From a virus: DNA of 64,000 bases. Under the pieces are notes generated by a model. That model made no database searches, had not been told where the DNA came from, and saw only the letters and a program-made list of their open reading frames with translations. Positions 3,526 to 57,800 of the stretch are shown here, in pieces. Both the position numbers and the translations under genes were made by a program. Each line of letters opens with the position of its first letter. Within the stretch, counting starts at the first letter, position 1. The stretch lies in the IMG/VR virus record IMGVR_UViG_3300030060_005695. One strand, given 5' to 3'.

Positions 3526-3546
3526 TATTTATCAATAAAGATAAAA

Positions 3547-7589: not shown

Positions 7590-7615
7590 ATAGATATTTA
7601 TAATAAAAAGAAATT

Positions 7616-16360: not shown

Positions 16361-16789
16361 ATGAAAGGTAAAATTAATACAGATAAAGGAACTATGGTGG
16401 TAGAGTTCTACGAAAAAGACGCACCAAACACAGTAAACAATTTTGTTAAATTAGCAAAAGAAGGTTTCTATAAAGACCTTAATTTTCACAGAGTTATTCC
16501 AGGATTCGTAGCACAAGGAGGATGCCCAAATGGAAGAGGTGACGGAGGACCAGGATATAAGATTGATTGTGAGTTAAACGGAGAAAATCAATTTCACGAT
16601 AGAGGAGTTCTATCAATGGCACACGCTGGTAGAAATACAGGTGGTTCACAATTTTTTATTGTACATACCAGAAACGCTACACAACATTTAGACCGTAATC
16701 ATACATGTTTCGGGAAAGTAGTTGAAGGGCTAGACGTTATAGAAAAAATACAACAAGGAGACAAATTTAACGTAGAAATAGAAGACTAA
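16361..16789 (+). CDS. Cyclophilin-type peptidyl-prolyl isomerase
   Basis: [33 protein letters not shown]. Confidence 0.95.
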
Positions 16790-17685
16790 TGAAGAATAGA
16801 TTATCCCAATATGTAGGTAACACACCCCTTATTCCCATAAGGATTGGTAGATACACAGTATGGGGTAAGGCAGAATTTATGAATCCATCCGGTTCTGTAA
16901 AAGATAGGATGGCAACTTTTATAATTAACAACGCAGAAAAAAACGGTCTTTTAAGTCCAGGTGATACTATGTGTGAAGCTACTAGTGGTAATAGTGGGAT
17001 AGCATTTGCTATGTTAGCAGCAGAAAGAGGGTATAAGATGGTAATAGTAATGCCATCCAACATGTCTGAAGAAAGAAAAAAAATGTTTGAGTATTATGGG
17101 GCAGAATTAATTGAGGCACCTGAAGGAGACTTTGATGAAGCTATTAGGATGAGAGATGAACTATGTTACGTTAACGAATGGTTTAATTGTAATCAGTTCG
17201 CCAACCCACTAAATGTCCAAGCACACTACCAAACTACAGGTCCTGAGTTCTACAATCAATACAAAGAAATTAAAGGTGAAAAATCATCACCAGCAGTTTT
17301 TGTAGCTGGAACCGGGACTGGTGGTACTTTAATGGGTACTGATAAATTTTTAAAAGAAATGTGGCCTAAAATAAAATCAGTAGCTATTGAACCAGCAGAA
17401 AGTGCGGTAATGTCGGGTTTTGAACCTGGGTTACATGGAATACAAGGTATTGGGGACGGAAGTAAATTTTTAGTAAATTTAGATGTTGTTTCAGAAGTAA
17501 GAATAGTAAGTACAGAATGTGCTAAAGCATGTGCTAGACACTTAGCTAAAAATTATGGATTATTTGTTGGGATAAGTGCAGCAGCAAATGTATTTGCATC
17601 ATTCCAGTGGTTAAGAGATAATGATAAAACAGAAGCTATAACGATATTATGTGATAGAGGAGAAAGGTATTTTAGTTGTATGTAA
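16789..17685 (+). CDS. cysK: PLP-dependent cysteine synthase (CysK/CysM family)
   Basis: NPSGSVKDR (PLP lysine), EATSGNSG, GTGTGGT, HGIQGIG. Confidence 0.9.
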   Translation: MKNRLSQYVGNTPLIPIRIGRYTVWGKAEFMNPSGSVKDRMATFIINNAEKNGLLSPGDTMCEATSGNSGIAFAMLAAERGYKMVIVMPSNMSEERKKMFEYYGAELIEAPEGDFDEAIRMRDELCYVNEWFNCNQFANPLNVQAHYQTTGPEFYNQYKEIKGEKSSPAVFVAGTGTGGTLMGTDKFLKEMWPKIKSVAIEPAESAVMSGFEPGLHGIQGIGDGSKFLVNLDVVSEVRIVSTECAKACARHLAKNYGLFVGISAAANVFASFQWLRDNDKTEAITILCDRGERYFSCM

Positions 17686-17748
17686 ATAACTAGAGTTTAT
17701 TTATAGAGTAAGTCGTTTATGATTATATTTATTGTAAACGACTTTTTT

Positions 17749-18534: not shown

Positions 18535-18559
18535 TCAAATAAGTAGATATTTATATAAT

Positions 18560-20330: not shown

Positions 20331-20347
20331 ATTATTATAAATATAAA

Positions 20348-20500
20348 ATGACTAAGAAAGCGAAGGAAGATATACAAAAAGAAATAAGAGAAATACAAAA
20401 AATTCTCACAAGTTTAAAGTTGCAGGATTATAAAAGTAAAGAAGACGTACAAAAGTTGCAACAAAAACTAGATAAATTATATAACCAAATTGAAAAATGA
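20348..20500 (+). CDS. Small coiled-coil protein (50 aa, not in ORF track)
   Basis: MTKKAKEDIQKEIREIQK...; ATGA overlap with the glutamine synthetase gene. Confidence 0.5.
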   Translation: MTKKAKEDIQKEIREIQKILTSLKLQDYKSKEDVQKLQQKLDKLYNQIEK

Positions 20501-21543
20501 CAAAAATTAAAACAAAAATTGAATACATCTGGTTAGACGGAACCCAACCAGAACAAACACTAAGGAGTAAAACTAAGATTGTAGACTTAGACAGTACTAT
20601 TACGACACCCAAACCTGAAGACTTACCAGAATGGTCGTTTGATGGTAGCTCAACAGCACAAGCCGTTGGTAATAATTCCGATTGTATCTTAAGACCAGTA
20701 AGGGTTTATCCAGACCCACAGAGAATAGGTTCTTATCTTGCATTATGTGAAGTATTAAATGAAAAAGGAATGTCTCATAAGACTAACGAAAGAGCAGAAT
20801 TAGAAGATATAGATTTTCATAGACACAAAGAAGGGTGGTGGTTTGGATTTGAACAAGAGTACGTCTTAATGAAAGACGGTAAACCACTAGGATTCCCTAA
20901 AGAAGGATATCCAGAACCACAAGGAAAATATTATTGTGGTGTAGGAACAGATAGAGTTATTGGTAGAGAAATTGTGGAACAACATTTAGACGCTTGTATG
21001 AATATTGGTTTAGACATCACAGGTGTTAACGCGGAGGTAATGTTAGGTCAATGGGAGTACCAACTATTCGGTAAAGGAGCTCTAAAGGTTTCTGATGATT
21101 TATGGGTTAGTAGATATCTTTTATATAGAATTACTGAAAATCATGGAGTAACAGTAGACCTACGACCAAAACCAGTGGAAGGTGATTGGAACGGTTCAGG
21201 AATGCACGTAAACTTTTCTACTAAAGAAATGAGAGAAGAGGGTGGTAAAGATTTGATAGAAGGTATTTGTGATACATTATCATTCTACCATGAAGAACAC
21301 ATCAATAATTACGGTAGTGATAATGAAAAAAGGTTAACGGGATTACATGAAACACAAGCTATAGACAAATTTAGTTATGGTGTGTCTGACAGAGGAGCTA
21401 GTATTAGAATTCCAGTGTCTACAGTAAAAAATAATTGGAAAGGTTATGTTGAAGATAGAAGGCCGGGAAGTAACGGAGACCCATACAAAATAACTAAAAG
21501 ATTATTACAAACTTTACAACCTCAACCAGAATTAGTAGACTAG
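20497..21543 (+). CDS. glnII: Glutamine synthetase type II
   Basis: EYIWLDG, WSFDGSST, FGFEQEY, NAEVMLGQWEYQ, DWNGSGMH, RLTGLHET, RGASIRIP, EDRRP. Confidence 0.93.
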   Translation: MTKIKTKIEYIWLDGTQPEQTLRSKTKIVDLDSTITTPKPEDLPEWSFDGSSTAQAVGNNSDCILRPVRVYPDPQRIGSYLALCEVLNEKGMSHKTNERAELEDIDFHRHKEGWWFGFEQEYVLMKDGKPLGFPKEGYPEPQGKYYCGVGTDRVIGREIVEQHLDACMNIGLDITGVNAEVMLGQWEYQLFGKGALKVSDDLWVSRYLLYRITENHGVTVDLRPKPVEGDWNGSGMHVNFSTKEMREEGGKDLIEGICDTLSFYHEEHINNYGSDNEKRLTGLHETQAIDKFSYGVSDRGASIRIPVSTVKNNWKGYVEDRRPGSNGDPYKITKRLLQTLQPQPELVD

Positions 21544-22809: not shown

Positions 22810-22835
22810 TTACTTTATATTTATAGTAGATAACT

Positions 22836-25674: not shown

Positions 25675-25718
25675 ATTCTTTCTAATTAACATATATTTAT
25701 ATAAAAACAGATTTAAAC

Positions 25719-28111: not shown

Positions 28112-29545
28112 ATGAATCTAATCGACGCTTTACAAACAAAAGACACACTGACAGAAAATGGTATGAGTACAAACTCATCCTCTTTAAATCACTGTGTCAA
28201 TCTTTTTTTCCAAATCGGAGCAATGCGAGGTATGGATAAGAAGAGACTACTCGCCAAAGTCTCTAAAGCGTTTAATGAAGACCCTCTCACAACAATTAAA
28301 ATTATTTTTTGGACACGTGATGTCCGTGGTGGAGCTGGTGAGAGACAAATCTTCAGAGATTGTTTATTATGGTTATGTGACAACCACAGAAATGTACTTA
28401 ATAAAAACATTCACTTAATTAGTGAATACGGTAGATGGGATGATGTATTAACATTAGTGGGTACAATGAATTGTTGGGAATCTGCTTTACACATAATTAA
28501 AACTGCGTTAGACAAACAAGATGGGTTATGTGCAAAGTGGATGCCAAGAAAAGGACCAAAAGCGAATATTATTCGTAGGTATTTAAAATTGTCACCCAAA
28601 CAATATCGTAAGTTATTAGTAGGACTTACAAATGTGGTTGAAACCAAGATGTGTGCAAAGGACTGGTCAAGTATCGAGTATTCGAAACTTCCGTCCCTAG
28701 CATCGTCAAGGTATCAGAAAACTTTCATGAAGAATGACGAGGAGAGGTATGAGGAGTACAAAAGAGCTTTAGTTGATGGTAAAACTACCATCAACTCTGG
28801 AGCTATATACCCTTATGACATTACTAAATCCATTAAATATGGTGGAGAAAAGGATGTTGCACAAGCACAATGGGAGTCTCTTCCAAATTACATGGAAGGA
28901 ATTAGTGAAAGAGTGTTACCTGTAGTTGATACCTCAGGTTCAATGACTACATCAGCAGGAAATAACGGTAAAGTTACTTGTATGGATGTGTCAACATCAT
29001 TGGGTCTGTATATCTCAGAGAGAAACGAAGGTGTATTCAAAAACACATTCATAACCTTCTCTTCGAGACCACAACTACAATTACTTGAAGGTTCGTTAGC
29101 CGATAGGTTAGACCAACTGGAGAGAGCAGATTGGGGAATGAATACTGATTTAAAAGCAACGTTTGAGTTAATCTTGGACCAAGCAGTAAAACATAATGTT
29201 CCACTATCACAGATGCCAACCAAAGTTCTTGTCCTTTCGGATATGGAGTTTGATGAAGCAATTGGTAGTAGAATGTATGATATATCAGATTGGAATCCAA
29301 CTGCACAAGAAATGATTAAAGGGATGTATGAGGAAGCTGGTTACGAAATGCCAGGAATTGTTTACTGGAATATCCAAAGTAGACAAGACAATGTACCAAC
29401 TCGTTTCGACGAGATGGGAACAGCATTAGTATCAGGATTCTCACCCTCAATCATGAAAAGTATTTTAAGCTGTGAGGAACTTACTCCTTATAATATGATG
29501 ATGGAGACTATTGGGTCCGCTCGATACGAATCTATTACGGTCTAA
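28112..29545 (+). CDS. DUF2828 family protein: helical N-terminal region plus C-terminal vWA domain
   Basis: RDVRGGAGER, YGRWDD, AKWMPR, MIDAS motif DTSGSM, LSDMEFD, VYWN, LVSGFSP. Confidence 0.85.
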   Translation: MNLIDALQTKDTLTENGMSTNSSSLNHCVNLFFQIGAMRGMDKKRLLAKVSKAFNEDPLTTIKIIFWTRDVRGGAGERQIFRDCLLWLCDNHRNVLNKNIHLISEYGRWDDVLTLVGTMNCWESALHIIKTALDKQDGLCAKWMPRKGPKANIIRRYLKLSPKQYRKLLVGLTNVVETKMCAKDWSSIEYSKLPSLASSRYQKTFMKNDEERYEEYKRALVDGKTTINSGAIYPYDITKSIKYGGEKDVAQAQWESLPNYMEGISERVLPVVDTSGSMTTSAGNNGKVTCMDVSTSLGLYISERNEGVFKNTFITFSSRPQLQLLEGSLADRLDQLERADWGMNTDLKATFELILDQAVKHNVPLSQMPTKVLVLSDMEFDEAIGSRMYDISDWNPTAQEMIKGMYEEAGYEMPGIVYWNIQSRQDNVPTRFDEMGTALVSGFSPSIMKSILSCEELTPYNMMMETIGSARYESITV

Positions 29546-29795: not shown

Positions 29796-29823
29796 ATGAG
29801 AATTTTTTCTATATTTATTATAT

Positions 29824-30384
29824 ATGAGAAAGTTATTAACAATATTACTAATGGTGTTGTCGTTTACATCCTATTCACAATGTGTAATTAATCAGTCACA
29901 TGTTATATCTCCAGCTGGTCCTTATTCTCCAGGACAAACTGTGACAGTGTGGTATACACTACAAGATTATACCGGGATAAATATAAACTGGATACATGCC
30001 ATCCAAATCAATCTAGGAATTGGGTGGGTGAACCTAACACCAACACAAGCTCCAGGTAATCCATTAGGCTCAACAGGTAATTGGTTGTGGGATTTACAAC
30101 ATACATACCCCGGAGGGTTTAACTTTGGGCCAGGTTGGAGATTTGTTAATGCAGGAACAGCTGGATGGGGAACCAGTTCTAACGGTCCATTTATCACTAG
30201 TTTTCAAATAACAGTTGGACAAACATGTACAAACGAAGATTTAAGTATTAGTATAGAGGTTTTCGATGATTGTACAACAGGAGGTTGGGCTAACGGAAAT
30301 TGTTGTAACGACCCAGCATATCAAATATACAACGGAACCGTTCAAGTAGTGATACCCACTACATCGAACATAAATCATTATTAA
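29824..30384 (+). CDS. Secreted beta-rich protein ending PTTSNINHY
   Basis: Signal peptide ending SYS-Q; TATTTAT at 29812-29818. Confidence 0.7.
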   Translation: MRKLLTILLMVLSFTSYSQCVINQSHVISPAGPYSPGQTVTVWYTLQDYTGININWIHAIQINLGIGWVNLTPTQAPGNPLGSTGNWLWDLQHTYPGGFNFGPGWRFVNAGTAGWGTSSNGPFITSFQITVGQTCTNEDLSISIEVFDDCTTGGWANGNCCNDPAYQIYNGTVQVVIPTTSNINHY

Positions 30385-30395
30385 AAAAATAAATT

Positions 30396-30935
30396 ATGAA
30401 AAGAATTTTAACAGTTTTATTAATCCTAATAGGATTAACGACTTACGGTCAAACAACAATCAACCCAGACACAGTATGTGCAAACGCAGTAGGTGAACAG
30501 TATTTTGTTACTAATACCCCTACATCAACTTATAACTGGACTATCACAGGTGGTGGTGGTGTTTTACAAACAGGACAAGGAACCAATTCAATCACAGTAG
30601 ATTGGGGAGGTGTTAGTGGACTTTTTCCAAACGCTGTTGAAGTTATTGAAACCAATGCAGCCAACTGTCCTGGAACACCCGTATTATTAGATGTGTTTGT
30701 ACTAGATTTAAATGGGAATGCAATTGGACCATTCTGTCCAGGAGACCCAACAACTCCATTAGTAGGAACACCAGCAGGTGGAACATGGTCAGGAACAGGT
30801 GTAGTAGCAAATTCATTCCAACCATCAACAGGGGTGGGGAATTACGTATTAACTTATTCTATGGCTGGTTGTAACACAACAATAAATGTGGTCGTTAATA
30901 ACGGACCAGTTACAGGACCAATCCAACACTACTAA
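30396..30935 (+). CDS. Secreted PKD/Ig-like protein ending PVTGPIQHY
   Basis: Signal peptide ending TYG-Q; YNWTITGG...NSITVDW; PAGGTWSG. Confidence 0.75.
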   Translation: MKRILTVLLILIGLTTYGQTTINPDTVCANAVGEQYFVTNTPTSTYNWTITGGGGVLQTGQGTNSITVDWGGVSGLFPNAVEVIETNAANCPGTPVLLDVFVLDLNGNAIGPFCPGDPTTPLVGTPAGGTWSGTGVVANSFQPSTGVGNYVLTYSMAGCNTTINVVVNNGPVTGPIQHY

Positions 30936-30936
30936 T

Positions 30937-31467
30937 ATGAGATGGTTAGTATATATACTACTACCACTTCAATTATTTGCTCAAGAAACTTACACTAATT
31001 GTGAGGGGATAGCACCACAAAATTATCAAGTAAGTTATGATGCGGATAAGGTATATTATTGGGATATAATAGGTGGAGAAATACTATACAATAATAATAA
31101 TTCTATTACTGTACAATGGCCTGATTCTATAGGTACCTATATTTTATCGGTACACACAACTAGATTTGGTTGTGAAGGAGATACATCCTACCATGAAGTA
31201 ATTGTGGAGGATTGTCCTTATCTACAAATATTTGTGCCTAACTCGTTCACACCAAACCAGGACGATTACAATGAAACATTTTATGTTCACGGTGCTGATA
31301 AAGACGATATAGAGTTAATGGTTATATATAATAGATGGGGTGAAGTGATATATCAAACAACAGATAACATTCCATGGGATGGAAAGAATTGCCAGGTAGG
31401 GGTCTACACATACTCGATTAGGACACACAACCAACATTATACAGGACACGTTACTTTGATAAGGTAG
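30937..31467 (+). CDS. Secreted protein with T9SS type B (gliding-motility-associated) C-terminal domain
   Basis: Signal peptide LFA-Q; VPNSFTPNQDDYNETF...IYNRWGE...WDG...GVYTY...GHVTLIR. Confidence 0.85.
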   Translation: MRWLVYILLPLQLFAQETYTNCEGIAPQNYQVSYDADKVYYWDIIGGEILYNNNNSITVQWPDSIGTYILSVHTTRFGCEGDTSYHEVIVEDCPYLQIFVPNSFTPNQDDYNETFYVHGADKDDIELMVIYNRWGEVIYQTTDNIPWDGKNCQVGVYTYSIRTHNQHYTGHVTLIR

Positions 31468-31573
31468 TTTGAACTTGTAAGATTTTGAAAATCAAAAATA
31501 ATCTAATAGTGGACAATCTTAATTATTTTTTCTATTTATTATATGAAATAATAATTAAATTAAAAATTAAAAA

Positions 31574-32365
31574 ATGAAAAGAATTTTATTAGCACTATTA
31601 GTCTTGCTTGGACTACAAACACAAGCACAAATCAATCTTTGTGACTCAATGACTGCATCGGGAGCACAAACTCAGCTAGTACTCCAAGTTAATAATGCAA
31701 ATACATTTATTGATTATTGGTGTACAAATTCCACATGTGGTTCATTACTAGGAGAGGATAGTATGAGTTTATATCATAATGTATATAACTCAAACCTTCA
31801 TGATACAATTGTTACTTGTATTACTTATGGTATGGGAGCCACTAATACATGTTGTGTAACCTGGATATGGGATGCAAATATGTGGTTAAAAATGAGTATG
31901 CAACAACAACCTTATTTTTGTTGTGACTCAATAACATACTGGACAGACCAAAGTCAAGGATTAACTGTTGGTCTTGATACAACAAACATGGTTCATAATC
32001 CTGACTCTATGACAGTATACTGGGGAGTATGTACTGGATATGCAGGAGCTGGTATATGTTATGCAGGAAATGGTATAAGTGATTATTTTCCTCAAGTCAC
32101 AACATCAGATACAATAAAGGTTGGTTATGATGTGTCTATTTACGAAAATGGTTCAGTAGAATACTGTAGTATGGAAGAATGGTTAATATTTGACCAAAAC
32201 ACATATTCATGGGTATTACTTAATATGTTACCAACTTCAATAAATGAATTAACATTTAATAGAAGTAATGATGGTAAAATTTATGATTTACTAGGTAGAG
32301 AATTAACTGAAATACCAGTAGGTAAATTATATATTAGAAATCAAAAATTATATATTACTAGATAA
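31574..32365 (+). CDS. Secreted Cys-containing protein with abbreviated T9SS type A-like CTD
   Basis: Signal peptide TQA-Q; TSINE...KIYDLLGRE...GKLYIRNQKLYI. Confidence 0.7.
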   Translation: MKRILLALLVLLGLQTQAQINLCDSMTASGAQTQLVLQVNNANTFIDYWCTNSTCGSLLGEDSMSLYHNVYNSNLHDTIVTCITYGMGATNTCCVTWIWDANMWLKMSMQQQPYFCCDSITYWTDQSQGLTVGLDTTNMVHNPDSMTVYWGVCTGYAGAGICYAGNGISDYFPQVTTSDTIKVGYDVSIYENGSVEYCSMEEWLIFDQNTYSWVLLNMLPTSINELTFNRSNDGKIYDLLGRELTEIPVGKLYIRNQKLYITR

Positions 32366-34067: not shown

Positions 34068-35372
34068 ATGAACGAAAGCAAAGATTTAAAAAGAATACAA
34101 GAATTTGTGGATAAACTAAAAGCCACCAACTCAACTAATGATAAGATTGATATTATTAAAGAGTACAAGGATGACTATCTGATTAACCAGGTTTTAAAAT
34201 ACACATATTCACCATTCAAACAATTTCATTTAACTAGTACAACAGTAAAGAAGAATAAAAAATTAGAATCTAAAATAGGTTATAATGATTTGTTTTATTT
34301 GTTGGACGCATTAAGTAAACGTACGATAACAGGACATGACGCAATCCAGTATACCAAAGGTTATATTGCTGCTATGGAGGATTGGCAAAAAGATTTAATA
34401 TTCTGTATTTTAGATAAAAACTTAAAGACAAGAACGGGAGCGGACCTAATCAACAAAGCAATTCCAAAATGTGTCCCTACTTTCAAGGTAGCACTAGCTA
34501 ACTCTTATGATAAACAAAAGGGTAAAGTTGATTTTAATAAACAAACTTGGTTCGCCTCCCAAAAGTTAGACGGTGTAAGATGTTTAGCGATAGTAGATGA
34601 AAATGGTAAATGTAATTTCTATTCAAGACAAGGTAAAACATTTGATACTTTAGATACCCTTAGAAAAGAAATAGAGAGTTTAGGACTAACTAATGTTGTA
34701 TTTGATGGTGAGGTATGTATTGTGGATGATAATGGTGTAGAAGACTTCCAAGGGATTATGAAGGAAATTAAAAGAAAAGACCACACCATTGAAAATCCTA
34801 AATATAAAATATTTGATTATCTTACACTAGAAGAATTTGACACACAAACCAGTACAAGAAATTTAAGTTTAAGATTAAGTACTTGTGTTAGACCTAAACT
34901 AAATTGTATAGAAATGTTAGAACAATGGAAAGTAGAGTCAGATGAACACTTCCAAGAGTTGGCAGAACTAGCAACTAAAAATAACTGGGAAGGTTTAATG
35001 TTACGTAAAGATTGTGAGTACAAAGGAAAAAGAAGTAATGACTTATTAAAAGTTAAGAAATTCTTTGATGAAGAATATGTGGTAAAAGGTGTTGAAGTTG
35101 CGGTTCACAGAATTATTGTAGATGGTTTAGAAGTAGAAGAAGAAATGTTAAGTAACGTTATAATAGAACATAAGGGTTGTGAAGTAAGAGTAGGTTCTGG
35201 TTTTGACCATGAAGAAAGAAGAATGTATTATGTTCCTGATTTTCACCCAGACAGTTTAGTCGGAAAAACAATTACAGTACAATACTTTGAAGAAACCCTT
35301 AACCAGGATGGTTGTCACTCATTAAGATTTCCCGTTGTAAAACATGTGTATGATGGGGAGAGAACTACTTAA
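34068..35372 (+). CDS. ATP-dependent DNA ligase
   Basis: KLDGVR, FDGE, EGLMLR, LLKVK, VGSG, SLRFP. Confidence 0.95.
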   Translation: MNESKDLKRIQEFVDKLKATNSTNDKIDIIKEYKDDYLINQVLKYTYSPFKQFHLTSTTVKKNKKLESKIGYNDLFYLLDALSKRTITGHDAIQYTKGYIAAMEDWQKDLIFCILDKNLKTRTGADLINKAIPKCVPTFKVALANSYDKQKGKVDFNKQTWFASQKLDGVRCLAIVDENGKCNFYSRQGKTFDTLDTLRKEIESLGLTNVVFDGEVCIVDDNGVEDFQGIMKEIKRKDHTIENPKYKIFDYLTLEEFDTQTSTRNLSLRLSTCVRPKLNCIEMLEQWKVESDEHFQELAELATKNNWEGLMLRKDCEYKGKRSNDLLKVKKFFDEEYVVKGVEVAVHRIIVDGLEVEEEMLSNVIIEHKGCEVRVGSGFDHEERRMYYVPDFHPDSLVGKTITVQYFEETLNQDGCHSLRFPVVKHVYDGERTT

Positions 35373-36258
35373 AGTTACCCAAGAAAGGCCACAATTCATC
35401 ATCAATAAGAACCTTAGTAACCGAAGGTAACAACCAAGGAGAAACGTTTGATAATTTCATACCATTAGTTAACCATAAAAATACTTGTTGATTTTTAAGT
35501 GCTGACACCTGAGCTTCACCAAATGTACCAGCTCCAGCTGTACCATCAAAGTTAATGAGATTAGTATCACATACTTGTAACATATATAAATCTTGGTGTA
35601 CAATTTGTTCCCTTATTTTTTCTTGAAATATTTTAAATTCTTCTGGTGTTAATTCGTTAGATTTCCATTTTTTAAACATGTCTTTAAATTCTGTATCAGC
35701 TTCTCTAACAGTTTCTGCTCTCATAGGATTTAAAAGTACTGGTGGAGTCAACCCTTCATAACTTAGTTCCCCTGTTGTTACAAGAGTAAGTAGTCTTTCA
35801 TCCTTTACAACATGACTAGGACCATAAAAATCTTCTACCTGAGTCCTCCAAGAAACAGCGTCTTTTGCAAAATCAATTCCCCCACCAAGATACATAGCCT
35901 TAGGGGTGAATATACCAACAGTAGAAGTAGGGTCCATCACATCTAAAATATCAATGGTCTGTTTAATTTCATCCATTGATGCGTTAATTAAAAAATTAGT
36001 TGCTTTATCAGTGATATAACGTTTAACCCACTTTAATAGTTTTCCTATTGTAGTTTTCGCTTTAATTTCTGGTATACCTTTATAGGATATTTGTTCGTCT
36101 ATGTCCGTATATTCTTCTTCAGAATTCATACTAACTGTATCGGTTAAATCATCACGTAGTTTTTGACGAGCATCTAAAGGCATCATCAATAGTTCATCTT
36201 GAATGTCTGTGATATCTACAACTTCTTCTTTTAAAATTTTTCTAATTAAGTTTTTCAT
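35365..36258 (-). CDS. Nucleoside 2-deoxyribosyltransferase/Rcl-like N-glycosidase with N-terminal MKNLIRKILKEE tag
   Basis: YLGGGI...SWR...LNP...DLYMLQVCD...GTFGE...VFLW pattern. Confidence 0.7.
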   Translation of the reverse strand: MKNLIRKILKEEVVDITDIQDELLMMPLDARQKLRDDLTDTVSMNSEEEYTDIDEQISYKGIPEIKAKTTIGKLLKWVKRYITDKATNFLINASMDEIKQTIDILDVMDPTSTVGIFTPKAMYLGGGIDFAKDAVSWRTQVEDFYGPSHVVKDERLLTLVTTGELSYEGLTPPVLLNPMRAETVREADTEFKDMFKKWKSNELTPEEFKIFQEKIREQIVHQDLYMLQVCDTNLINFDGTAGAGTFGEAQVSALKNQQVFLWLTNGMKLSNVSPWLLPSVTKVLIDDELWPFLGNFK

Positions 36259-37064
36259 TAATAATCTGTATTAGCTTTTTCACCTTTCATTATTTCTAAT
36301 CCTGCAGAAGTACCTATTCGGGAAGCTCCAGCATCAACCATTTTTTCAAGGTCTTCTCTACTATAAATACCCCCAGAAGCTTTAACTTTTAATGGACCTG
36401 CATTTATAGACATTATTGATACGTCATCTACAGTTGCCCCACCAGGACCACCATCTTCAGGTTTATAAAATCCTGTGGAAGTTTTTACAAAAACATCACT
36501 TGCTTTTTGTTCCCCAACTGTTTCTATAACGACATCTCTAATTAAACTTGTTAATTCAGCAACTTGGTCTGAAGTTAACGCTGCAGACTCTATAATCCAT
36601 TTCACCACTCTACCCTCATCTATCCCTATAGATGTACCTTCACTAACCTCATTCTTAACTTTATCCAAATCACCATTTTTAAAAGCATTGTAGTCAACAA
36701 CAAAATCTAATTCATCAACATTATTGTTAATAGCTTCCATAGCTTCACTTATTTTTTCACTAATACTAGCATCCCCACCAGGGAAACCAATAACAGTACC
36801 AACTAGAAGGTCTGAATCATACTCTTTAATCATTTGGTCAGCTAAACTAACAAACTCAGGTCTTATCATAACTAACTTCATATTGTGGTCTATAGCATCT
36901 TGAATAGTTTTGGAGACTAATCTAGTAGTCTCATCATCACTAATACCTGCTTGGTCCGAGGTTTTTAAATAAGTAGAGTCTATATATTGACCTATATTAT
37001 CCCCTTCTGTTAGTCTAATTAGTTCTTTAATCCTTCGGATGTCTTCTGTAATCATATCTTTCAT
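36258..37064 (-). CDS. deoC: Deoxyribose-phosphate aldolase with N-terminal extension
   Basis: TVIGFP, ELDFV, KWIIE, FVKTSTGF (Schiff-base Lys), VKASGGI, RIGTS. Confidence 0.93.
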   Translation of the reverse strand: MKDMITEDIRRIKELIRLTEGDNIGQYIDSTYLKTSDQAGISDDETTRLVSKTIQDAIDHNMKLVMIRPEFVSLADQMIKEYDSDLLVGTVIGFPGGDASISEKISEAMEAINNNVDELDFVVDYNAFKNGDLDKVKNEVSEGTSIGIDEGRVVKWIIESAALTSDQVAELTSLIRDVVIETVGEQKASDVFVKTSTGFYKPEDGGPGGATVDDVSIMSINAGPLKVKASGGIYSREDLEKMVDAGASRIGTSAGLEIMKGEKANTDY

Positions 37065-37126
37065 TATTAATAAATATATTTAAATCCTTTAATATTATCT
37101 AGGACTATTTATAATAAAAAAGAATT

Positions 37127-42711: not shown

Positions 42712-42732
42712 ACCACCGGATATTTATATTTG

Positions 42733-45140: not shown

Positions 45141-45166
45141 ATATTAGTTTTCATGGTTAATAAATA

Positions 45167-45814
45167 TCACTTTAAACCTATAACCTCATCAATAATACCA
45201 TAATCTAGAGATTCTGAAGCAGTTAACCACTTATCCCTAGTAGAGTCTTCCATTACTTGTTTTGGGTCTTTATCACAATACCCCCCTAAAAGTTCGAACA
45301 ATATATCGTTAGTTTTTTCCCATTCTTTCATACTAATTCTAGCGTCCTGGATATTACCCACAGCACCACCAGAACTTTGATGTAACATGGTTTTACTAAA
45401 TCTTAATGAAGACCTTTTACCTTTAGTACCAGCTCCTAGAAGTACTGACCCCATACTTGCAGCCATACCCGTATTAACTGTAGCTATATCACATTTTACA
45501 TAATCCATTACATCTACAATTCCTAGTCCAGATTTTACACTACCACCAGGTGTGTCCACATGTAATGTAATATCATCCATTCCTATAGAATCTAAAAACA
45601 TTAATTGAGCTTGTACAATAGTACTCATCCTATCATTTACTGGACCAGCACACCATATAATTCTTTCCATCATTAACCTATCGAATACACTCATCGATAC
45701 AGCTCTCATTTCTCTTTCTTCTATAACCATAGGAGTCATAGAGTTCTTGTAATCATAAAGTGTGGTAGAGCTAACACCAAAGTCACTTTTTACGTATTTT
45801 TCAAATTCAGTCAT
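45167..45814 (-). CDS. clpP: ClpP protease subunit
   Basis: SVFDRLMMERII, TPGGSV, AASMG, MLHQ, RDKWL, YGIID. Confidence 0.95.
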   Translation of the reverse strand: MTEFEKYVKSDFGVSSTTLYDYKNSMTPMVIEEREMRAVSMSVFDRLMMERIIWCAGPVNDRMSTIVQAQLMFLDSIGMDDITLHVDTPGGSVKSGLGIVDVMDYVKCDIATVNTGMAASMGSVLLGAGTKGKRSSLRFSKTMLHQSSGGAVGNIQDARISMKEWEKTNDILFELLGGYCDKDPKQVMEDSTRDKWLTASESLDYGIIDEVIGLK

Positions 45815-48228: not shown

Positions 48229-48255
48229 TACAACATATAAATATTTGGCAAAAAG

Positions 48256-48727: not shown

Positions 48728-48848
48728 TGTTTTGTTTTTTATTAATTATATAATCCTTTTTTTAAAAGATAAAGTGAATACTCAAGCTTTTTACTTTAAT
48801 AATAAATATACAACTAATAGATATTTATGTATAGAACAAATTTAAATT

Positions 48849-51800
48849 ATGTCAGAATGTCTTACATTAGATTACGGAGGTATACTAGAATATTATGGTG
48901 ATGTATGGGAACCATTATGTTGTTATTCTGTCCCAACCCAAACTTACGATGACTTTGTTAGTGGTCTAACAGAATATTATAACAATGCTTGTATAAAGGA
49001 TAGGGTATTTTCTGACTACGTAACTAAACTATATAATAATTGTCTATCTGGTAGTTCTGGTGGTGGTACTGGAGGTACTGGTGTTTATGTGACCGGGGGT
49101 ACAGCAAATGGAGCCAATTCTACACTTAATTTTACAAATAGTACGGGTGGTACATTTACCGTAACAAATAGTGCACTCTTATTTAACGACGCTTTTGTTA
49201 CGGGAGGTACGTTAAATCAAGCAACTGGAGTTGTTACATTTACCAATTCTTCTGGAGGTACTTTTACCGTAAGTGGTTTTGATGATTTTGCCTCCTATTG
49301 GTCAGGTAGTAGTGACGGTACTAGTATTACAACTTCTGGTTCAAATACAACAACTAATGTTAATCTACCGGGTCTTTTAGGTGTAACTGGAGACACCACT
49401 ATAAATGGAGATTTATTTGTCACAGAATACATCAAACATAAAGGTGATGTAAATACAGCAATCCGTTTTACTAATAATAAGATTAGCTTTGATGCTGGTG
49501 GTATGACTTTCTTTGCAGTTCATGACGATGATAGTGCTCCTTTTACTGCTACAGTTAATGGTGGAGGTAACACAATTAACTTCAGGGCTTTAGATGAAAA
49601 TCAAGATATACTTTTAAAAACTGATTCTGAAGAAAACAAAGTTAATCTATACCATGCAGGTAATCAAAAACTGGAAACTACTTCTACCGGTATTAATATA
49701 TCAGGCAGTACACTTAATCAGGGTAACTTAGGAGTTAGTGGGATAACTTACAGTAATGTAGTATCGGCAAACACACAACATATAGCAAGCACATTAGGAA
49801 TATCTGGAAAAACTTATTTAGGTAGTGTAGACACAGCAACTGCAACAGCATCAGACAAAATATTAGTAGTACAATCAACAGGAGAAATAGAATCTATAAC
49901 CACAGCTGCTCTTACAGCATTTACCTCAGATTATTGGGTAGGAAACGGAAGTGGAACTGGAATAAAACCGTCAGGTACCACAACAAATGTCGATGTGACT
50001 GGAGTATTAGGGGTAACTGGCAATTCAACTTTTGGTGGAAGTATATTAGTGGGTGATGGTAGTGTCAGTGCTAACTATGCAGGATTTGGTAATAATGCTG
50101 ACCTAAAGATATTTCACAATGGAAGTCATTCAATAATAAGAGAAACAGGAACCGGAAGCCTCTACCTACAAAGTGACAATAATGTTATAATTTCTAAGGA
50201 TAGTAGTACAGAACTTATGGTGAAGGGTATTGCCGATGGAGCAGTTGAACTCTACTACGATAATGTTAAAAAGTTTGAAACTACATCAGCGGGTGTTAAT
50301 GTTTCAGGAAATACTTTAATCAAGAATGAATTAGGGGTATCAGGTAGGACTTACCTAGGAACTATAGATGCTGCGGGAGATAGTTACTCAGCAAATCAAA
50401 TACTTGTAGCTCAAGGAGATGGTGAGGTAGAATACTTAACAACAGCACAACTAAAAGCAGATATTGCAGATGCTGATTATTGGACTGGTAATACAGATGG
50501 TACTAGCATAACACCTTCCGGTGGTACAACAAATACCGATATAAAATTAAATGGGGGTCTAACAGCACAAACTTTAAATATTAGTGGTAATACCAGTTTA
50601 GGGGATAACGATAAAATAATGTTAGGTGCTGACAATGATTTAGAGGTTTATGCTAATAGTAGTGGTGGAAGGATAGCGGTTGGGAGTAGTACATTACAGG
50701 TTGAAGGTAATACATTAGATTTTACGGATGGTAGTGCTACCAGTTATCTTTTTAGAGGGGTAGCTTCGGGTGCCGTTTCCTTATATCATTCCGGTACAAA
50801 GAAATTTGAAACCACATCAAGTGGAATTAACGTGTCAGGTAATACCCTAGTTAAAAATGAGTTGGGTGTGTCTGGTAAGACTTATCTCGGAACTATAGAT
50901 GCAGCAGGAGGGAGTTATTCGGCAGATAAAATACTTGTAGCTCAAGGTGACGGTGAAATAGAATATCTAACTACAGCTGAATTAAAAGCAGATATTGGTG
51001 ATAACGATTATTGGACTGGTAATACTGACGGAACCAGCATAACTCCTTCAGGGGGTACAACAAATACGGATATAAAATTAAACGGTGGACTTACAGCACA
51101 AACTCTAAACATTAGTGGTAACACGATATTAGTGGATGATGCTAAACTAATGTTAGGTGACGCTAATGACCTACAAATCTATCATGACGGAAGTAACTCT
51201 ATAATACAAGATAATGGTACAGGACATGTACAAGTTAGGTCCGGTACCTTTACAATCTTAAATGCTGCAGGAAGTAAAACATCGGCAATCTTCAACTCCG
51301 GTAGTGAACAGGCTTTTTATTATGATAACGTTCAAAAACTGGAAACTACTTCTACCGGTATTAATATATCAGGTAGTACACTCAATCAAGGTAACTTAGG
51401 TGTTACCGGAGTAACTTACAGTAATGTAGTATCTGCCAACACCCAACATATAGCAAGTACATTAGGTGTATCAGGTAAAACATTCTTAGGAAGTGTAGAT
51501 ACAGCAACAGCAACAGCATCAGACAAAATCTTAGTTGTACAATCAACAGGAGAAATTGAAAGTATAACCACAGGTGCTCTTACAGCATTTACCTCAGATT
51601 ACTGGATAGGAAATGGTAGTGGAACCGGAATAAAACCATCAGGTGGTACTGTTAATGTTGATGTGACGGGCCAATTAGGGGTGAGCGGTGATACCACTAT
51701 AAATGGAAATTTATATGTTAGTCAATACATTAAACATAATGGTGACCCTAATACTTATCTTGAATTTTATGATGATAGACTTTTATTTAATATTGGTGGC

Positions 51801-54800
51801 ATATCATATCTAGATTTAAATGACGCTTCTTCTGCTCCACATGATATTATATTCAATAATGGTAATAATGATGTAGATTTAACCATTAAAGGTGGTTCTA
51901 GTACTATATTATTTACTGATGCTTCTACTCATAGAGTTGGTATAGGAACAGAAACACCTACAGTAAAATTAGATGTTAATGGTGATGTAAAAATAAGTGG
52001 TGACACTTCTATCAAAACTAATCTAGGAGTTACTGGGGTAACATATAGTAATATAGTATCTGCCAACACTCAACATATAGCAAGTACATTAGGAATATCT
52101 GGAAGAACCTTCTTAGGTACTGTAGATGCAGCTTCACCTACACCAACAAGTACAGACAAGATACTTGTAGTACAATCAACTGGTGAAATAGAATCTATTA
52201 CCAAAGCACAACTTACTGGGTTTACTGAAAATTACTGGTCATCCAATACAGATAGTCTTAGTATATCTCCATCTGGAAGTACAAATATTTTATTAAGTGG
52301 TGGTTCTGGTACAGGTTATCCACTAACAATAGATAGAGAAGATAATGGGCACTTCTTAAAATTTCACTCAAACTCAAATCCACATCAAGACTATACATTT
52401 GAGTCAGAATCTAGTGGTTCATTTTATGGGTTAAATTTAAAAAATAAAGACGGGGATACAATAGTTAATTTTGCTGCAAACCAAATGTTTGGGGTAGGTA
52501 CTATTAATCCAACAGTAGCTGTTGATATAGATAGTGGTCTATCGGGAGCGGATGCAGTACAAGTAAGAATCGCGGGTAGAACTGGTATAGGACACACTAA
52601 CGCGGGTCAACAACGTAGTATTTTTGGTAACTCTTATGGTCATGATGATACACGTATGGGGTTTGTTATTGGTGGTTATACCACAGCAGATGAGAAAATA
52701 ACAGTTATGGGTACTGGTGATGTTGGAATTGGTACTGCTGATGCAGCTTCAGGTATAAGAGCAAGACTCCATGTTTCAGGGTCTACCATACTAACCGATA
52801 GTTTAGGTGTGAGTGGTAATACAAATATAAATGGTGTATTATCTGGTGTTACAGATGCAAGATTTGGGGGTAATTTAGGGGTATCAGGTAGAACCTTCCT
52901 AGGTACTGTAGATACAGCAACAGCAACAGCATCAGACAAAATCTTAGTGGTACAATCCACAGGAGAAATAGAATCCATCACTACTGGAGCACTTACAGCA
53001 TTTACATCAGATTATTGGGTAGGTAATGGAAGTGGTACGGGTATTAAACCATCAGGTACCACAACAAATGTAGATGTGACAGGAATACTAGGGGTTAGTG
53101 GTAAAACATTTTTAACTGGATTAGTGGGTGTGGGTACAACTACACCAGACTCCTTACTAGAAATAAGTAGTAGTGATGGTTCGACTACAGATTATTTAAA
53201 ATTAACTTCAGCAAACAGTGGTAATAATCCTATAAAACTTATATTTGAAAAATCAGGGTCAGAACAAGGTATAATAGAATACAATAGAAACGGTGATTTA
53301 GAGATATACAATAATGATGGGGATGGTGGTGTGATGATTGACGGGTCCGCCTCAGCTGGTGGAGACTTATATGTTGCTAATTCAGGCAACGTGGGAGTAA
53401 AAACAACAAATCCTAGTGTAGAACTTGATGTTAATGGTAGTGTTAAAATAACAGGTAACACTCTCAATCAAGGTAATCTAGGAGTTACTGGGGTGACATA
53501 TAGTAATATAGTATCAGCAAATACCCAACATATAGCAAGTACATTAGGTGTATCCGGAAGAACTTATCTGGGAACTATAGATGCAGCAGGAGGTAGTTAC
53601 TCCGCAGATAAAATATTGGTAGCTCAATCAAATGGTGAAGTAGAATATCTAACTACCGCAGAATTAAAAGCAGATATAGGTGACAACGATTATTGGACCG
53701 GTAATACAGATGGTACTAGTATAACGCCTTCAGGGGGGACAACAAATACCGATATAAAATTAAATGGTGGACTTACAGCACAAACCCTAAACATTAGTGG
53801 TGATACTATTTTAGGGGATGACGATAAAATAATGTTAGGTGACGCTAACGACTTACAAATATTCCACAATGGTAGTCATAGTATAATAAAAGATGTTGGA
53901 ACAGGCCATTTATCTTTACAAGGAAATGATTTAAGATTAAATAACGCAGATTGGAGTGCAAATTATCTAACAGCAGCTAACGGAGGTGAAGTTGCTATTT
54001 TCCATAATAATAGTTTAAAATTAGAAACTACTTCTTCAGGGCTTAATGTTTCCGGAAATACCTTAGTTAAGAATGAGTTAGGGGTATCTGGTAGAACTTA
54101 TCTCGGAACTATAGATGCAGCAGGAGGGAGTTATTCGGCAGATAAAATACTTGTAGCTCAAGGAGATGGGGAGGTAGAATATCTAACCACCGCTCAATTA
54201 AAAGCTGACATCGGAGACAATGATTATTGGGTAGGAAATGGTTCTGGAACTGGTGTAAAACCTTCGGGAACTACAACCAACGTAGATGTAACAGGAGTAC
54301 TTGGGGTTTCAGGCAAAACTAACATTACAGGAGATTTAGATGTTGATGGAACATCAAACCTAGACGCAGTAGATATAGATGGTAATGTTCAGTTAGATGG
54401 TACACTAACTGTTGGTGTAGATGACACTGGGCATGATGTTAAGTTTTATGGTGCAACTACTAGTAGGTTTTTACATTGGGATGAAAGTGAAGATTACTTA
54501 TTATTTAGAGATAATGTTAAAGGTGTTTTTGGTAATGGAGCTGATTTAAAACTATATCATGATTCTAATAATAGTTATATAGAAAATGGTACTGGTGCTC
54601 TTTATATTATGCAACGTGCTGATGGTGCAGACATGTCATTTCAATGTGATGCTGGTGATGGTACAGACGCAGAATATTTTAGACTAGATGGAGGTGATGT
54701 TAAAACTATATTTTCAAAACCAATTCAAGTTGGTGTAGATGACACTGGTTATGATGTAAAATTCTTTGGTGATACCGCAAGTTCCTATATGTTATGGGAT

Positions 54801-57800
54801 ACATCAGAAGATAGATTAGAAGTAGGTTCTGATACTTCCCCTAAAATTAGATTAAACAGAAGTGGTACCGGACAAGTATGGCAACAAGAAATAGACTCCA
54901 GTGGAAGATTCCAACTAAAAGAAGCTGCTAGTGCTGGTGGTACATTATACGTAAGATTACAAATTGATGATACTGGGGAAGTAGATTTGTATAACACACT
55001 TACTGTTGGTGGTGGGGATGTAATAATAAGTGGTGACACATTTAATAAAGGTGATTTAGGGGTAACTGGTATAACCTATAGTAATACAGTATCTGCCCAC
55101 ACCCAACATATAGCAAGTACATTAGGAATATCCGGAAGAACTTATTTGGGTACAATAGATGCAGCGGGAGATTCATACAGTAATGATAAAATCCTTGTAG
55201 CTCAATCTAATGGAGAGGTGGAATATCTAACCACTGCTGAATTAAAAGCAGATATTGGTGATAATGATTACTGGCAAGGTAATGGTTCAGGTACTGGAAT
55301 AAAACCTTCTGGTACAACTACGAATGTAGATGTAACTGGTGTACTAGGGGTAACGGGAAAAACATTTATAAGTGGTGATGTCGGTATAGGAACCACTACT
55401 CCAGCTACAAATTTAGAAATAAAATCTACTAGTGATACAACTGTAAGAATATCAACTGATGGTGATTCAGGTGATGTGCCAACTTTACAATTGTATAGAA
55501 ATGGTGCTGCTTATTCACAATTTCATTATGAAGCAGGTGGAGGTGCTAATTCAGGATTACATATAACAGATTTTAGAGATGATGCAAATTCTCATATTAT
55601 TTTTAATACTCGAGGAGATAATGAAAGAGTAAGAATAGAAAGCGATGGGAAAGTTGGTATAGGAACATCAACCCCAACCGCAAAACTTGATATTGATGGT
55701 GATGTAAAAATAAGTGGTGATACTTCTATCAAAACTAATCTAGGAGTTACTGGAAATACATATGTCAAAGGTAATACATTTATTGATGGTACCCTTTCCG
55801 CTATGGGTAACACTACATTAAGTGGTACGTTAGACTTAAACAGTGTAGCAGCAATTACACCTACACCGACTAGTACAGAAGTTATATTAGTTAAAGATAC
55901 TTCCGGAGTAGTAAAATCTATAACAAAAGCACAACTGACAGGTATTACTGAAGGACTATATTGGGAAGAGGATGGGACTGGTACGGGTATTAAACCATCA
56001 GGGGCTACTACAAATATAAAATTAGGTGGTGGACTAACAGCACAAACTCTAAACATTAGTGGTAATACCATATTAGGTGATAATGATAAAATAATGTTAG
56101 GTGCTGATAATGATTTAGAAATTTATAGTGATAGTACTAACGGTAGGATAGCAGCGGGTAGTGGGGTGTTACAGATTGAGGCAGATACGTTAGATTTTAC
56201 TGATGGTGCTGCAACGGAATATTATATAAGATGTGTCGCAAACGGTTCAGTCTCCCTATATCATGATGCAAATAAAAAGTTTGAAACCACAGTAGCCGGT
56301 ATTAATGTTTCCGGAAATACTTTAGTTAAGAATGAGTTAGGTGTGTCTGGTAAGACTTATCTAGGGGATATAGGTGCAGCAGGAGATGGGTACTCCGCAG
56401 ATAAAATATTAGTAGCACAAGGCGATGGTGAAGTAGAATATTTAACAACCGCACAACTCAAAGCGGATATAGGAGACAATGATTATTGGCAAGGAAATGG
56501 TAGTGGAACAGGAATAAAACCGTCAGGTACAACAACTAATGTAGACGTAACAGGTCAATTAGGGGTGAGTGGTGATACCACTATAAGTGGAGACCTACTC
56601 GTTGCTGAATATATTAAACATGCTGGTGACAGTGACACATTCATACAATTCGCCGATGACTCTATTGGGATTAACGCAGGGAATGAACAACTTATTACTA
56701 TATCTGAGTCTCCAACCTTTGTGAAAATTGGTGACGGAGGTGATGTTGATTTTCAAGTGAGAACTAATTCCGACGACAACACGTTGTATGTTGAAGGTAG
56801 TACAGATAATGTAGGTATCGGTACTAACACACCTACAGTAAAATTAGATGTTAATGGTAGTGTTAGAATAACTGGGGATACATTTACTAAAGGAAATCTT
56901 GGTGTAACTGGAAATACATATGTCAAAGGTAACACATACATTGATGGTACCCTTTCCGCTATGGGTAATACAACAATTACAGGAGATTTAGATGTTGATG
57001 GAACCTCCAACCTAGATAACACTGATATAGACGGAACCTTAGTAGTAGACGGTACTAATATATCTCTAGACTCCACTAGTACATTAAATATAGATAACTC
57101 AAATACAACTAATGGTATTACCATTGGTACAGCTACATCCGCTGTACCTATCTCGATAGGACATACTACATCTGAAACTACTATAAACGATAACTTAACA
57201 GTAACCGGTACTTTAGATTTAGATAGTGTAGCAGCAATTACACCAACACCTACTAGTACAGAGGTAATATTGGTTAAAGATAGTAGTGGGGTAGTTAAAT
57301 CTATAACAAAAGCACAATTAACTGGTGTTACTGAAGGTTTATACTGGGTAGAGGATGGTACGGGAACTGGAATAAAACCATCAGGGACCACAACCAACAT
57401 AAAATTAGGAGCTGGATTAACCGCACAAACTCTAAACATTAGTGGTAATACTATTTTAGGGGATGACGATAAAATAATGTTAGGTGACGCTAACGATTTA
57501 AAGATTTATCACGATGGTACGGACAATCATATAGAATCAACAGGAGATTTAAATATTGATACAACAGGTAGTGGTGATATAATATTAGACGCTGTTGGTG
57601 AGATAAAGTTTGAAACAGCCGATGGAGATATCCGAGGAGATGCATCCAATTACTTCTTTAGTTCTTCTGTTAGTGGTAGACCAAGGTTATATTTACTGAA
57701 CACTAATACTGATGCTAATGGTGCTGAGTTTGTATTTGATAAAACGTCAGTAGCTGGAGCTGATGGTGACGATATTGGTAAAATCAAATGGGACGCTGAA

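Follow-up and report, generated by a model that had tools for sequence, protein, structure and literature searches.

In the window, by which we mean the whole analysed stretch of 64,000 nt from the IMG/VR virus record IMGVR_UViG_3300030060_005695, two minus-strand genes form a conserved two-gene operon. They encode the deoxyribose-phosphate aldolase DeoC and a protein with the predicted fold of nucleoside 2'-deoxyribosyltransferases (NDTs), which is called here the NDT-like protein. The phage is of the marine T4-superfamily jumbo phage type, and the window is AT-rich (32% GC). We propose that the operon is probably expressed late, that both enzymes would together break down deoxynucleoside monophosphates (dNMPs), and that both would be packaged into the phage head and ejected into the next host; for this joint reading we see the chances as about evenly balanced. 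The identity of DeoC, the fold of its partner, the linkage of the genes, the conservation of the leaders and the prohead protease of related phages are the observations from which we infer substrate, packaging and purpose. In the literature we found no report combining DeoC, an NDT-family dNMP hydrolase and capsid-targeting leaders of the T4 type, all of which, including the phage hydrolase DmtZ, are known separately.

The DeoC aldolase

The deoC gene (36258..37064, minus strand; 268 aa), recognised by its open reading frame (ORF) and by matches in the PDB, precedes the gene of the NDT-like protein (35365..36258, minus strand; 297 aa), the start of which shares 1 nt with the deoC stop: base 36258 is common to the stop codon TAA and the next ATG (TAATG). 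A sequence-only reading of the window had described this overlap, the position of the pair on the minus strand behind the motif TATTTAT and its orientation opposite to the neighbours, and the ORF coordinates and the motif position agree with it. It had also pointed to a DeoC lysine in KTSTG and a glutamate of the partner in GTFGE; both were found, as Lys194 in FVKTSTGF and as Glu248 in AGAGTFGE.

Judged by its sequence, the first gene encodes a true class I DeoC aldolase with the full set of catalytic residues. The best PDB match is 5dbu (E = 5.3e-32 over residues 41-268), and more than 25 further deoxyribose-phosphate aldolase (DERA) structures match as well. The KTSTG motif with the Schiff-base Lys194 (36471..36485, minus strand) aligns to the PDB sequence (fvKTSTGF versus yvKTSTGF), and so do, in 5dbu, the second lysine (Lys228 in KASGG), the relay lysine, the catalytic aspartate and the C-terminal tyrosine. 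Among 10 aligned phage homologues, which go down to 27% identity, Asp120, Lys155, Lys194, Lys228 and the C-terminal Tyr268 are invariant. PF01791 is assigned to close relatives of the window DeoC; a direct Pfam scan of the window protein itself did not list this family at E values up to 0.1, and the PDB matches were decisive. By tblastn, the gene shows approximately 38% identity to deoC genes in records of the phage collection. The phage enzyme is predicted to cleave, probably, deoxyribose-5-phosphate to glyceraldehyde-3-phosphate and acetaldehyde.

Homology to the cellular enzymes begins at approximately residue 20-25 (residue 25 aligns with chain residue 6 of 6d33), and therefore we regard residues 1-20 of DeoC (MKDMITEDIRRIKELIRLTE; 37005..37064, minus strand) as an added N-terminal leader, which ends with L-T-E before Gly21. 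A leader is present on all 10 phage homologues in the alignment, and the distant ones read M..Y..F[LIV]NE. At L011:8917-10017 (record G002) the DeoC frame comprises 367 aa with approximately 100 additional N-terminal residues; either the start was called wrongly or a domain has been added.

The NDT-like protein

According to its structural model, the 297-aa protein belongs to the five-stranded alpha/beta NDT superfamily, though not to PF05014 in the strict sense, and it is a new divergent branch of this superfamily. AlphaFold2, run on an alignment of 30 sequences of the NDT-like family (A1), gave a model with a predicted local distance difference test score (pLDDT) of 83.9 and a predicted template modelling score (pTM) of 0.79. 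Residues 1-9 and 47-68 are disordered in it (pLDDT < 50), while helix 28-46 is confident. The putative catalytic domain (residues 117-297; 35368..35910, minus strand), which was delimited by structure comparison of the model, superimposes on 7o62 with Z = 12.7 and a root-mean-square deviation of 2.7 over 128 aligned residues; further fold matches are 6evs (Z = 12.0), 1f8x (Z = 11.2), MilB (Z = 10.3) and Rcl (Z = 8.2), and TIR and ThsB domains score Z = 9-9.6. NDT-family entries make up nine of the ten top-ranked structural matches, and the top matches in Foldseek are exclusively NDT, MilB or DNPH1. In a library of viral folds, phage NDTs were matched at E = 1.5e-5 and a 161-aa protein of Gordonia phage Ghobes at 1.3e-3, and the neighbours in the ESM Atlas are NDT clusters (0.93). 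The NDT/Rcl-like fold that the sequence-only reading had expected is thus borne out by the model and by its best PDB matches, which are NDT, MilB and DNPH1.

The conserved motifs in A1 are YLGGGID..WR, P.LLNP.R.E, KWK and DL..L..CDTNL..D..AGAGT.GE.Q. Pro178, Asp223, Gly244, Thr245 and Glu248 are invariant, and Tyr123, Gly126 and Asp129 are at least 90% conserved. The YLGGGID motif (Tyr123 to Asp129; 35872..35892, minus strand) lies at the end of strand 1, and the AGAGTFGE motif (35515..35538, minus strand) contains the predicted nucleophile Glu248, with Asp223 located 25 residues upstream. By these motifs, the Tyr/Asp/Glu set of the covalent glycosyl-enzyme mechanism is retained. The conserved Arg138, Lys199 and Lys282 and the Gly-rich YLGGGID loop could be phosphate binders. 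At the level of sequence, PF05014 positions 44-100 align to residues 211-266, two or three of the 30 family members match PF05014 at 1.3e-5 and PF15891 at 4.8e-7, and the A1 profile finds NDT in the PDB only at E = 0.1.

The family is apparently small and viral, with 57 representatives at 50% clustering in an exhaustive search. A tblastn search among cultured phages did not detect it, the sole match being a 735-kb uncultured phage. A word-indexed search revealed hundreds of near-identical copies in marine metagenomes, some of them on contigs of 220-300 kb. Its hundreds of metagenomic members make up a new marine branch of the NDT superfamily, and a widespread one.

Distant phages harbour a second NDT-like paralog of approximately 305 aa, which bears a leader and usually adjoins DeoC (L002:2443-3357; L027:442-1362; L028:6760-7680; L029:7493-8410). 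Variant architectures were found in the family members P0242, P0243, P0296 and P0295: two variants have Cys-rich N-terminal extensions of 130-216 aa ahead of a leader-like segment, in one a LAGLIDADG endonuclease domain comes first (PF03161, 1.1e-27), and one NDT-like domain sits within a protein of 2,639 aa.

Linkage of both genes in related phages

A scan of IMG/VR yielded 37 loci. In the close clade (54-89% identity), deoC lies directly upstream of the NDT-like gene in 21 of 21 loci, two of which end at a contig edge, with gaps of -17 to +9 nt. In several lineages with 23-35% identity, adjacency is kept with rearranged gene order and different flanks. In L029 and L031, where the NDT-like proteins are 28-35% identical, deoC is followed by the NDT-like gene after +15 nt, while L039 shows the reversed order with a gap of +1 nt. 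In L040 the two genes are 1.1 kb apart, and in L002 and L028 a divergent deoC adjoins the NDT-like paralog. The proposed operon is therefore found linked in relatives, as the sequence-only reading had suggested should be checked, both in the close clade and in several deeply diverged lineages. The nearest record, G001 (a 61-kb fragment with a CheckV completeness of 19%), does not contain the gene.

In the window, all flanking genes are on the plus strand, opposite to the pair. An ATP-dependent ligase gene (34068-35372) and UvdE are located on one side, and a small ORF and a SNase-like nuclease on the other, where the flanking ORFs start at 37127 and 37288. Since the ligase and SNase neighbours are kept solely in L006, L007 and L011, we conclude that the pair travels as a unit.

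A promoter-like motif

The motif ATATTTAT (37070..37077, minus strand) is located 5 nt upstream of the deoC ATG. Its 27 copies in the window exceed the expectation of 15.9, and all of 100 shuffles had fewer than 27. Close relatives keep it upstream of deoC, 4-22 nt ahead of the ATG. In the related records G002 and G003, the prohead-protease gene likewise has the core TATTTAT in front of it, and for this reason we read ATATTTAT as a probable late promoter. The pattern would fit late co-expression with head genes.

Elsewhere in the window, ATATTTAT is found 11-27 nt upstream of many start codons and in the same orientation as the gene. Such copies are located on the plus strand at 1676-1683, 3525-3532, 7594-7601, 11076-11083, 17725-17732, 18547-18554, 22817-22824, 25693-25700, 29811-29818, 42720-42727 and 48821-48828, and on the minus strand at 20337-20344, 45160-45167 and 48237-48244. 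They probably represent a phage promoter class with very short leaders, possibly a late one. In distant clades, TTAATATATA is present 15-25 nt ahead of leader-bearing genes, including cases in which deoC is not linked to the NDT-like gene, and it was found upstream of deoC and NDT-like genes in L002, L028, L032, L033, L039 and L040.

Leaders and predicted propeptides

The leader of the window DeoC contains three [LI]-x-E sites (ITE7, IKE14 and LTE20), and the NDT-like protein contains two (LKE11 and IDE55). Based on the disorder in the model and on family conservation, residues 1-55 of the latter (36094..36258, minus strand) are a predicted propeptide, which consists of MKNLIRKILKE with L-K-E11, a conserved helix (PL..R..L) and an acidic disordered linker with I-D-E55 before Gln56. 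The second site is thereby at the end of the helical pro-region, in the disordered linker of the model. At both positions [LIV]-x-E is kept across the NDT-like family (e.g. ...SLNE-G and ...DLNE-I). In giant phages, long propeptides with more than one cleavage site have been described (PMC5694885).

In both protein families, the distant homologues have M-K-x-x-x-Y-x-x-F-[LI]-N-E at their N-terminus, as in MKIITNYGDFLNE, MKLKKYNQFINE and MLTIKYNDFVNE. The T4 capsid-targeting sequence (CTS) is MKTYQEFIAE (PMC8442874), in which residues 4 and 7 have a part in targeting and residues 8 and 10 in processing (PMC9026906). The distant leaders share its pattern Y-x-x-F-[LI]-x-E, and this strict pattern is approximately five-fold enriched at N-termini (5.7% vs 1.2%). 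The DeoC leader is absent from non-phage DeoC and has hydrophobic residues and a glutamate at the predicted cleavage position.

A prohead protease of the gp21 type (Peptidase_S77) is encoded by the related records G002 (E = 1.5e-26), G003 and G006, and its homologues are found in 2,486 phage records, mostly T4-like. Together with the T4 CTS pattern in distant homologues of both proteins, this protease strengthens the idea of a common tag that had been put forward from the window alone. The relatives also carry T4-like major capsid proteins of the gp23 type (L049:1456-3294, minus strand; L050:427-2259; L051:1432-3195, minus strand; L052:1240-2934), which contain H-x-[LI]-N-E at residues 41-60, just ahead of the conserved mature region. 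The [LI]-N-E is at what we take to be the position where T4 gp23 is cut. Maturation cleavage of the capsid proteins likely takes place at this H-x-[LI]-N-E, a site of the type seen in the leaders.

In distant relatives, a leader similar to the T4 CTS is present on unrelated proteins, which include a DEDD/RNase T-type exonuclease, two S-adenosylmethionine (SAM) methyltransferases, one of which starts with MKTFKEFIEE, and an ankyrin-repeat protein (L039:18965-19753; L002:73-810; L031:1231-1854; L028:1570-2241). A protein of 181 aa starting with MIIKNYIQFVNE (L039:17578-18123) resembles the 2H phosphoesterase/Acb1 families, the latter known as inhibitors of the cyclic-oligonucleotide-based antiphage signalling system (anti-CBASS); it matches PF13563 at 1.7e-10 and PF23474 with 30.9 bits, which is over the cut-off. 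This Acb1-like protein is a candidate for a packaged enzyme of signal degradation or RNA repair. The same leader on several unrelated proteins supports a portable addressing signal on enzymes which likely act on the host, and it is silent on dNMPs specifically.

An unnamed HAD-type family with more than 370 metagenomic members and without a Pfam match is found beside the NDT-like gene in two distant phages (L040:11694-12524; L047:614-1504). The gene at L047, in the 735-kb phage LR756501, ends 4 nt inside the NDT-like gene. Nearly all members start with MKKYxxFxxE approximately 10 residues ahead of a DxDxN motif. We considered this family as a dNMP nucleotidase and rejected it, because its model (pLDDT 88.8) has the 3'-phosphatase domain of T4 Pnkp as the best fold match (5uj0, Z = 11.3); it thus adds no support for the targeting of dNMPs.

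Proposed pathway and its purpose

We propose the following course of events. The operon would be transcribed late, and the leaders would bring both proteins into the scaffolding core, where the prohead protease would trim DeoC after Glu20 and the NDT-like protein after Glu11 and Glu55; on ejection of the DNA, the mature enzymes would pass with it from the head to the next host. Packaging, trimming and ejection are proposed because the propeptides resemble the T4 CTS and end in [LI]-x-E sites of the gp21 type. In the new host, the NDT-like enzyme would hydrolyse the N-glycosidic bond of dNMPs to base and deoxyribose-5-phosphate, as DNPH1/Rcl and DmtZ do, and DeoC would split the latter to glyceraldehyde-3-phosphate and acetaldehyde, which would make the loss of the nucleotide irreversible. 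We favour dNMPs as the substrate because deoxyribose-5-phosphate is the one product of an NDT-type hydrolase which DeoC takes directly, and it is the sole metabolite joining both enzyme families without a mutase or kinase. Hydrolysis of dNMPs is the most likely activity of the NDT-like protein, for which the operon linkage to DeoC provides the chief indirect support.

The purpose could be to deplete modified dNMPs or those of the host early on, for instance in order to pre-empt immune signalling by molecules derived from dNMPs; disposal of nucleotides from degraded host DNA and carbon supply are possible as well. The phage precedents for deliberate destruction of dNMPs are DmtZ and T5 Dmp, the latter of which removes deoxyadenosine monophosphate (dAMP) early in infection and thereby defeats the deoxyinosine triphosphate (dITP) signalling of Kongming (bioRxiv 10.1101/2024.12.20.629578). 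It is tempting to speculate that the conserved pro-helix may hold the hydrolase inactive in the producing cell, which would do away with the cost of destroying dNMPs while DNA is replicated. Going one step further, the head could be loaded with a toolkit of leader-addressed enzymes, in which the DeoC/NDT-like module would be silenced by its propeptides until cut by the protease and would, at entry, erase modified dNMPs or the precursors of immune signals (Kongming-type dITP or similar). We put this forward as a tentative idea, which we think rather doubtful.

If true, the joint reading would establish a complete virus-encoded route from nucleotides to central metabolism, possibly delivered as protein cargo, and the concept of T4 internal proteins, so far small inhibitors and Alt, would come to include ordinary metabolic enzymes. 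The pair provides a testable link to deoxynucleotide-based immunity, and an injected module would represent a virion-delivered metabolic counter-defence pathway.

Weighing the alternatives

Several observations weigh against dNMP breakdown by packaged enzymes. No significant PDB match came from sequence searches with the full-length NDT-like protein, with its C-terminal domain, with a short homologue or with the family profile, and the match of the window protein to PF05014 is weak (E = 0.085; 13.4 bits with a cut-off of 28.8). For these reasons, the assignment of the 297-aa protein rests on predicted fold and motifs, and the residue equivalences were judged from motif and spacing together with the range of the PF05014 alignment. 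The data fit a nucleotide or a nucleoside substrate, and a hydrolase or a transferase, alike. As regards linkage, DeoC was not found within 10 kb of the NDT-like gene in eight loci, nor in the 316-kb record G006 (78% complete), and a distance of 99 kb separates the two genes in the 735-kb phage. The sequence-only reading had proposed a tag on both proteins, and [LI]-x-E leaders are indeed present in both. However, the tag in the window alone is not significant, because 23.6% of 758 ORFs have the loose motif (hydrophobic-hydrophobic-x-E) within their first 22 residues, versus 12.3% of internal windows; we rejected it as a sufficient signal by itself, and the window's own leaders match the loose pattern only. 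In the window, leader-bearing ORFs and ATATTTAT coincide to a modest extent (7/17 vs 14/66 by our own count). Finally, the injected molecules, a few hundred, may be too few for the nucleotide pool.

The same dNMP breakdown could also take place unpackaged in the cytoplasm of the producing cell and serve to remove unwanted or modified dNMPs that stem from degraded host DNA, or to regain carbon and energy; in that case, the leaders would be ordinary N-terminal helices or have a role, for instance, in oligomerisation or regulation. The frequency of the loose motif at ORF N-termini is in line with this, several ATATTTAT-driven genes of the window have no leader, T5 Dmp works in the cytoplasm, and enzymes of the DNPH1 type are pool sanitisers. 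We nevertheless consider this explanation possible rather than probable, since a leader of the exact length found on DeoC, ending with L-x-E, is absent from cellular DERA, and the leaders are kept in both families across 23-35% identity, with the distant ones matching the T4 CTS residue-wise. Further, destroying dNMPs while replicating a 300-kb genome would be costly.

The best fold matches of the NDT-like protein are true transferases (7o62, 6evs and 1f8x), and DmtZ, one phage enzyme of the NDT family, both hydrolyses and transfers (PMC12884076). Like DmtZ, the NDT-like enzyme could therefore act mainly as a transferase of deoxyribose or deoxyribose-5-phosphate onto a non-canonical base for modified DNA, with DeoC mopping up hydrolysed sugar phosphate or, as its reaction is reversible by established enzymology, running in reverse to supply deoxyribose-5-phosphate. 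We set aside base-swapping in the style of DmtZ/PurZ or of deazaguanine, because PurZ (PF00709) and TGT/DpdA (PF01702) were not found in five related records, two of which are 93-97% complete, and a role of this kind is thus less likely. In the close relatives G002 and G003, a gene of the thymidylate synthase family was not found either. In addition, acetaldehyde is scarce in cells and there would be no need for a capsid-targeting leader on a biosynthetic enzyme, so that a transferase role seems unlikely to us.

Still less probable is that the NDT-like domain cuts another N-glycoside, either NAD+/ADP-ribose signals (similar to TIR or CD38) or ribonucleotides (similar to MilB or LOG), and that DeoC is linked to it for other reasons. 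TIR and ThsB come next among the fold matches, MilB hydrolyses ribonucleotides, and the Acb1-like 2H phosphoesterase is among the other leader-bearing proteins of the relatives. But the Tyr/Asp/Glu set of the NDT type is intact, NDT beats TIR by approximately 3 Z units, and the conserved tyrosine is proposed to exclude ribo-substrates, i.e. those with a 2'-OH, in DmtZ (PMC12884076). Above that, a deoxyribose product is suggested by the fact that the linkage to DeoC recurs in rearranged forms. An action of both enzymes on DNA, the NDT-like protein as a base-removing glycosylase and DeoC as a Schiff-base lyase at abasic or 5'-deoxyribose-phosphate sites, would suit the repair and nuclease genes in the neighbourhood (UvdE, ligase, SNase-like nuclease) and has formal DNA analogues for both chemistries, but we think it very improbable, since this neighbourhood is kept in two or three nearest relatives only, DeoC retains the entire residue set of a free-sugar aldolase including the C-terminal tyrosine, and we know of no NDT-fold DNA glycosylase.

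Other cargo of the window

Apart from the pair, the window encodes a PLP-dependent (pyridoxal phosphate-dependent), cysteine-synthase-like enzyme, a glutamine-synthetase-like protein, a DUF2828/DUF7788 protein, four secreted proteins with signal peptides in the style of Bacteroidota and an ORF of 4,082 aa; this cargo is located at 16789-17685, 20497-21543, 28112-29545, 29824-32365 and 48849-61097.

Comparison with known systems

The phage DeoC keeps all catalytic residues of the cellular DeoC/DERA of the deo operon. The cellular enzyme is without the 20-residue leader of the window DeoC, which in distant phage homologues varies from about 10 to approximately 90 residues. In the cellular operon DeoC is paired with DeoA, DeoB and DeoD, whereas the phage partner is an NDT-fold enzyme, and therefore the phosphopentomutase step is unnecessary.

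Nucleoside 2'-deoxyribosyltransferases (PF05014; 7o62, 6evs and 1f8x) are the best structural matches of the NDT-like protein (Z = 11.2-12.7, approximately 130 aligned residues) and share the GT..E nucleophile motif with it. They work on nucleosides and release no free sugar phosphate, and the window protein is under the PF05014 cut-off (13.4 versus 28.8 bits). DNPH1/Rcl and DmtZ have the superfamily fold in common with the window protein, and the predicted product, deoxyribose-5-phosphate, is the DeoC substrate in their standard coupled assay (PMC12884076). DmtZ is the dAMP hydrolase of Gordonia phage Ghobes with the catalytic residues Tyr6, Asn77 and Glu103, plus Asp12 (PMC12884076, 2026); a 161-aa Ghobes protein, possibly DmtZ, is among the viral fold matches of the window protein. 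The spacing of +6 between Tyr6 and Asp12 equals that between Tyr123 and Asp129, and Asn77 and Glu103 are separated by 26 residues compared to 25 between Asp223 and Glu248, so that the relative spacing of the four residues agrees except for one insertion. By the Tyr-to-Glu spacing we estimate this insertion, which contains P.LLNP.R.E and KWK, at approximately 30 residues. Unlike DNPH1 and DmtZ, to which it shows no significant sequence match, the window protein also has approximately 115 additional N-terminal residues (the propeptide and a conserved helical region) and a DeoC operon partner, which is not reported for either of them. A PurZ-type context was not found in the five related records.

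With T5 Dmp, a 5'-deoxyribonucleotidase, the proposed pathway would share the removal of dNMPs at the start of infection, for which the counter-defence effect is proven in T5. Dmp is not homologous to either window protein, and it is a phosphatase yielding nucleosides, in contrast to the proposed route to base and deoxyribose-5-phosphate. It is made from the first-step-transfer DNA and is not virion-borne.

Unlike the internal proteins and Alt of T4, the cargo proposed here would be ordinary metabolic enzymes, and the NDT-like protein has a longer propeptide with two sites, as in giant phages (PMC5694885). Common to the T4 proteins and the family of the window pair is a short N-terminal leader with hydrophobic residues at P7, P4 and P3 and a glutamate at P1. 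In T4 it is cleaved by gp21, and a protease of this type is encoded by relatives of the window phage. Last but not least, in T4 as in the phage group of the window, the leader is portable across unrelated proteins.

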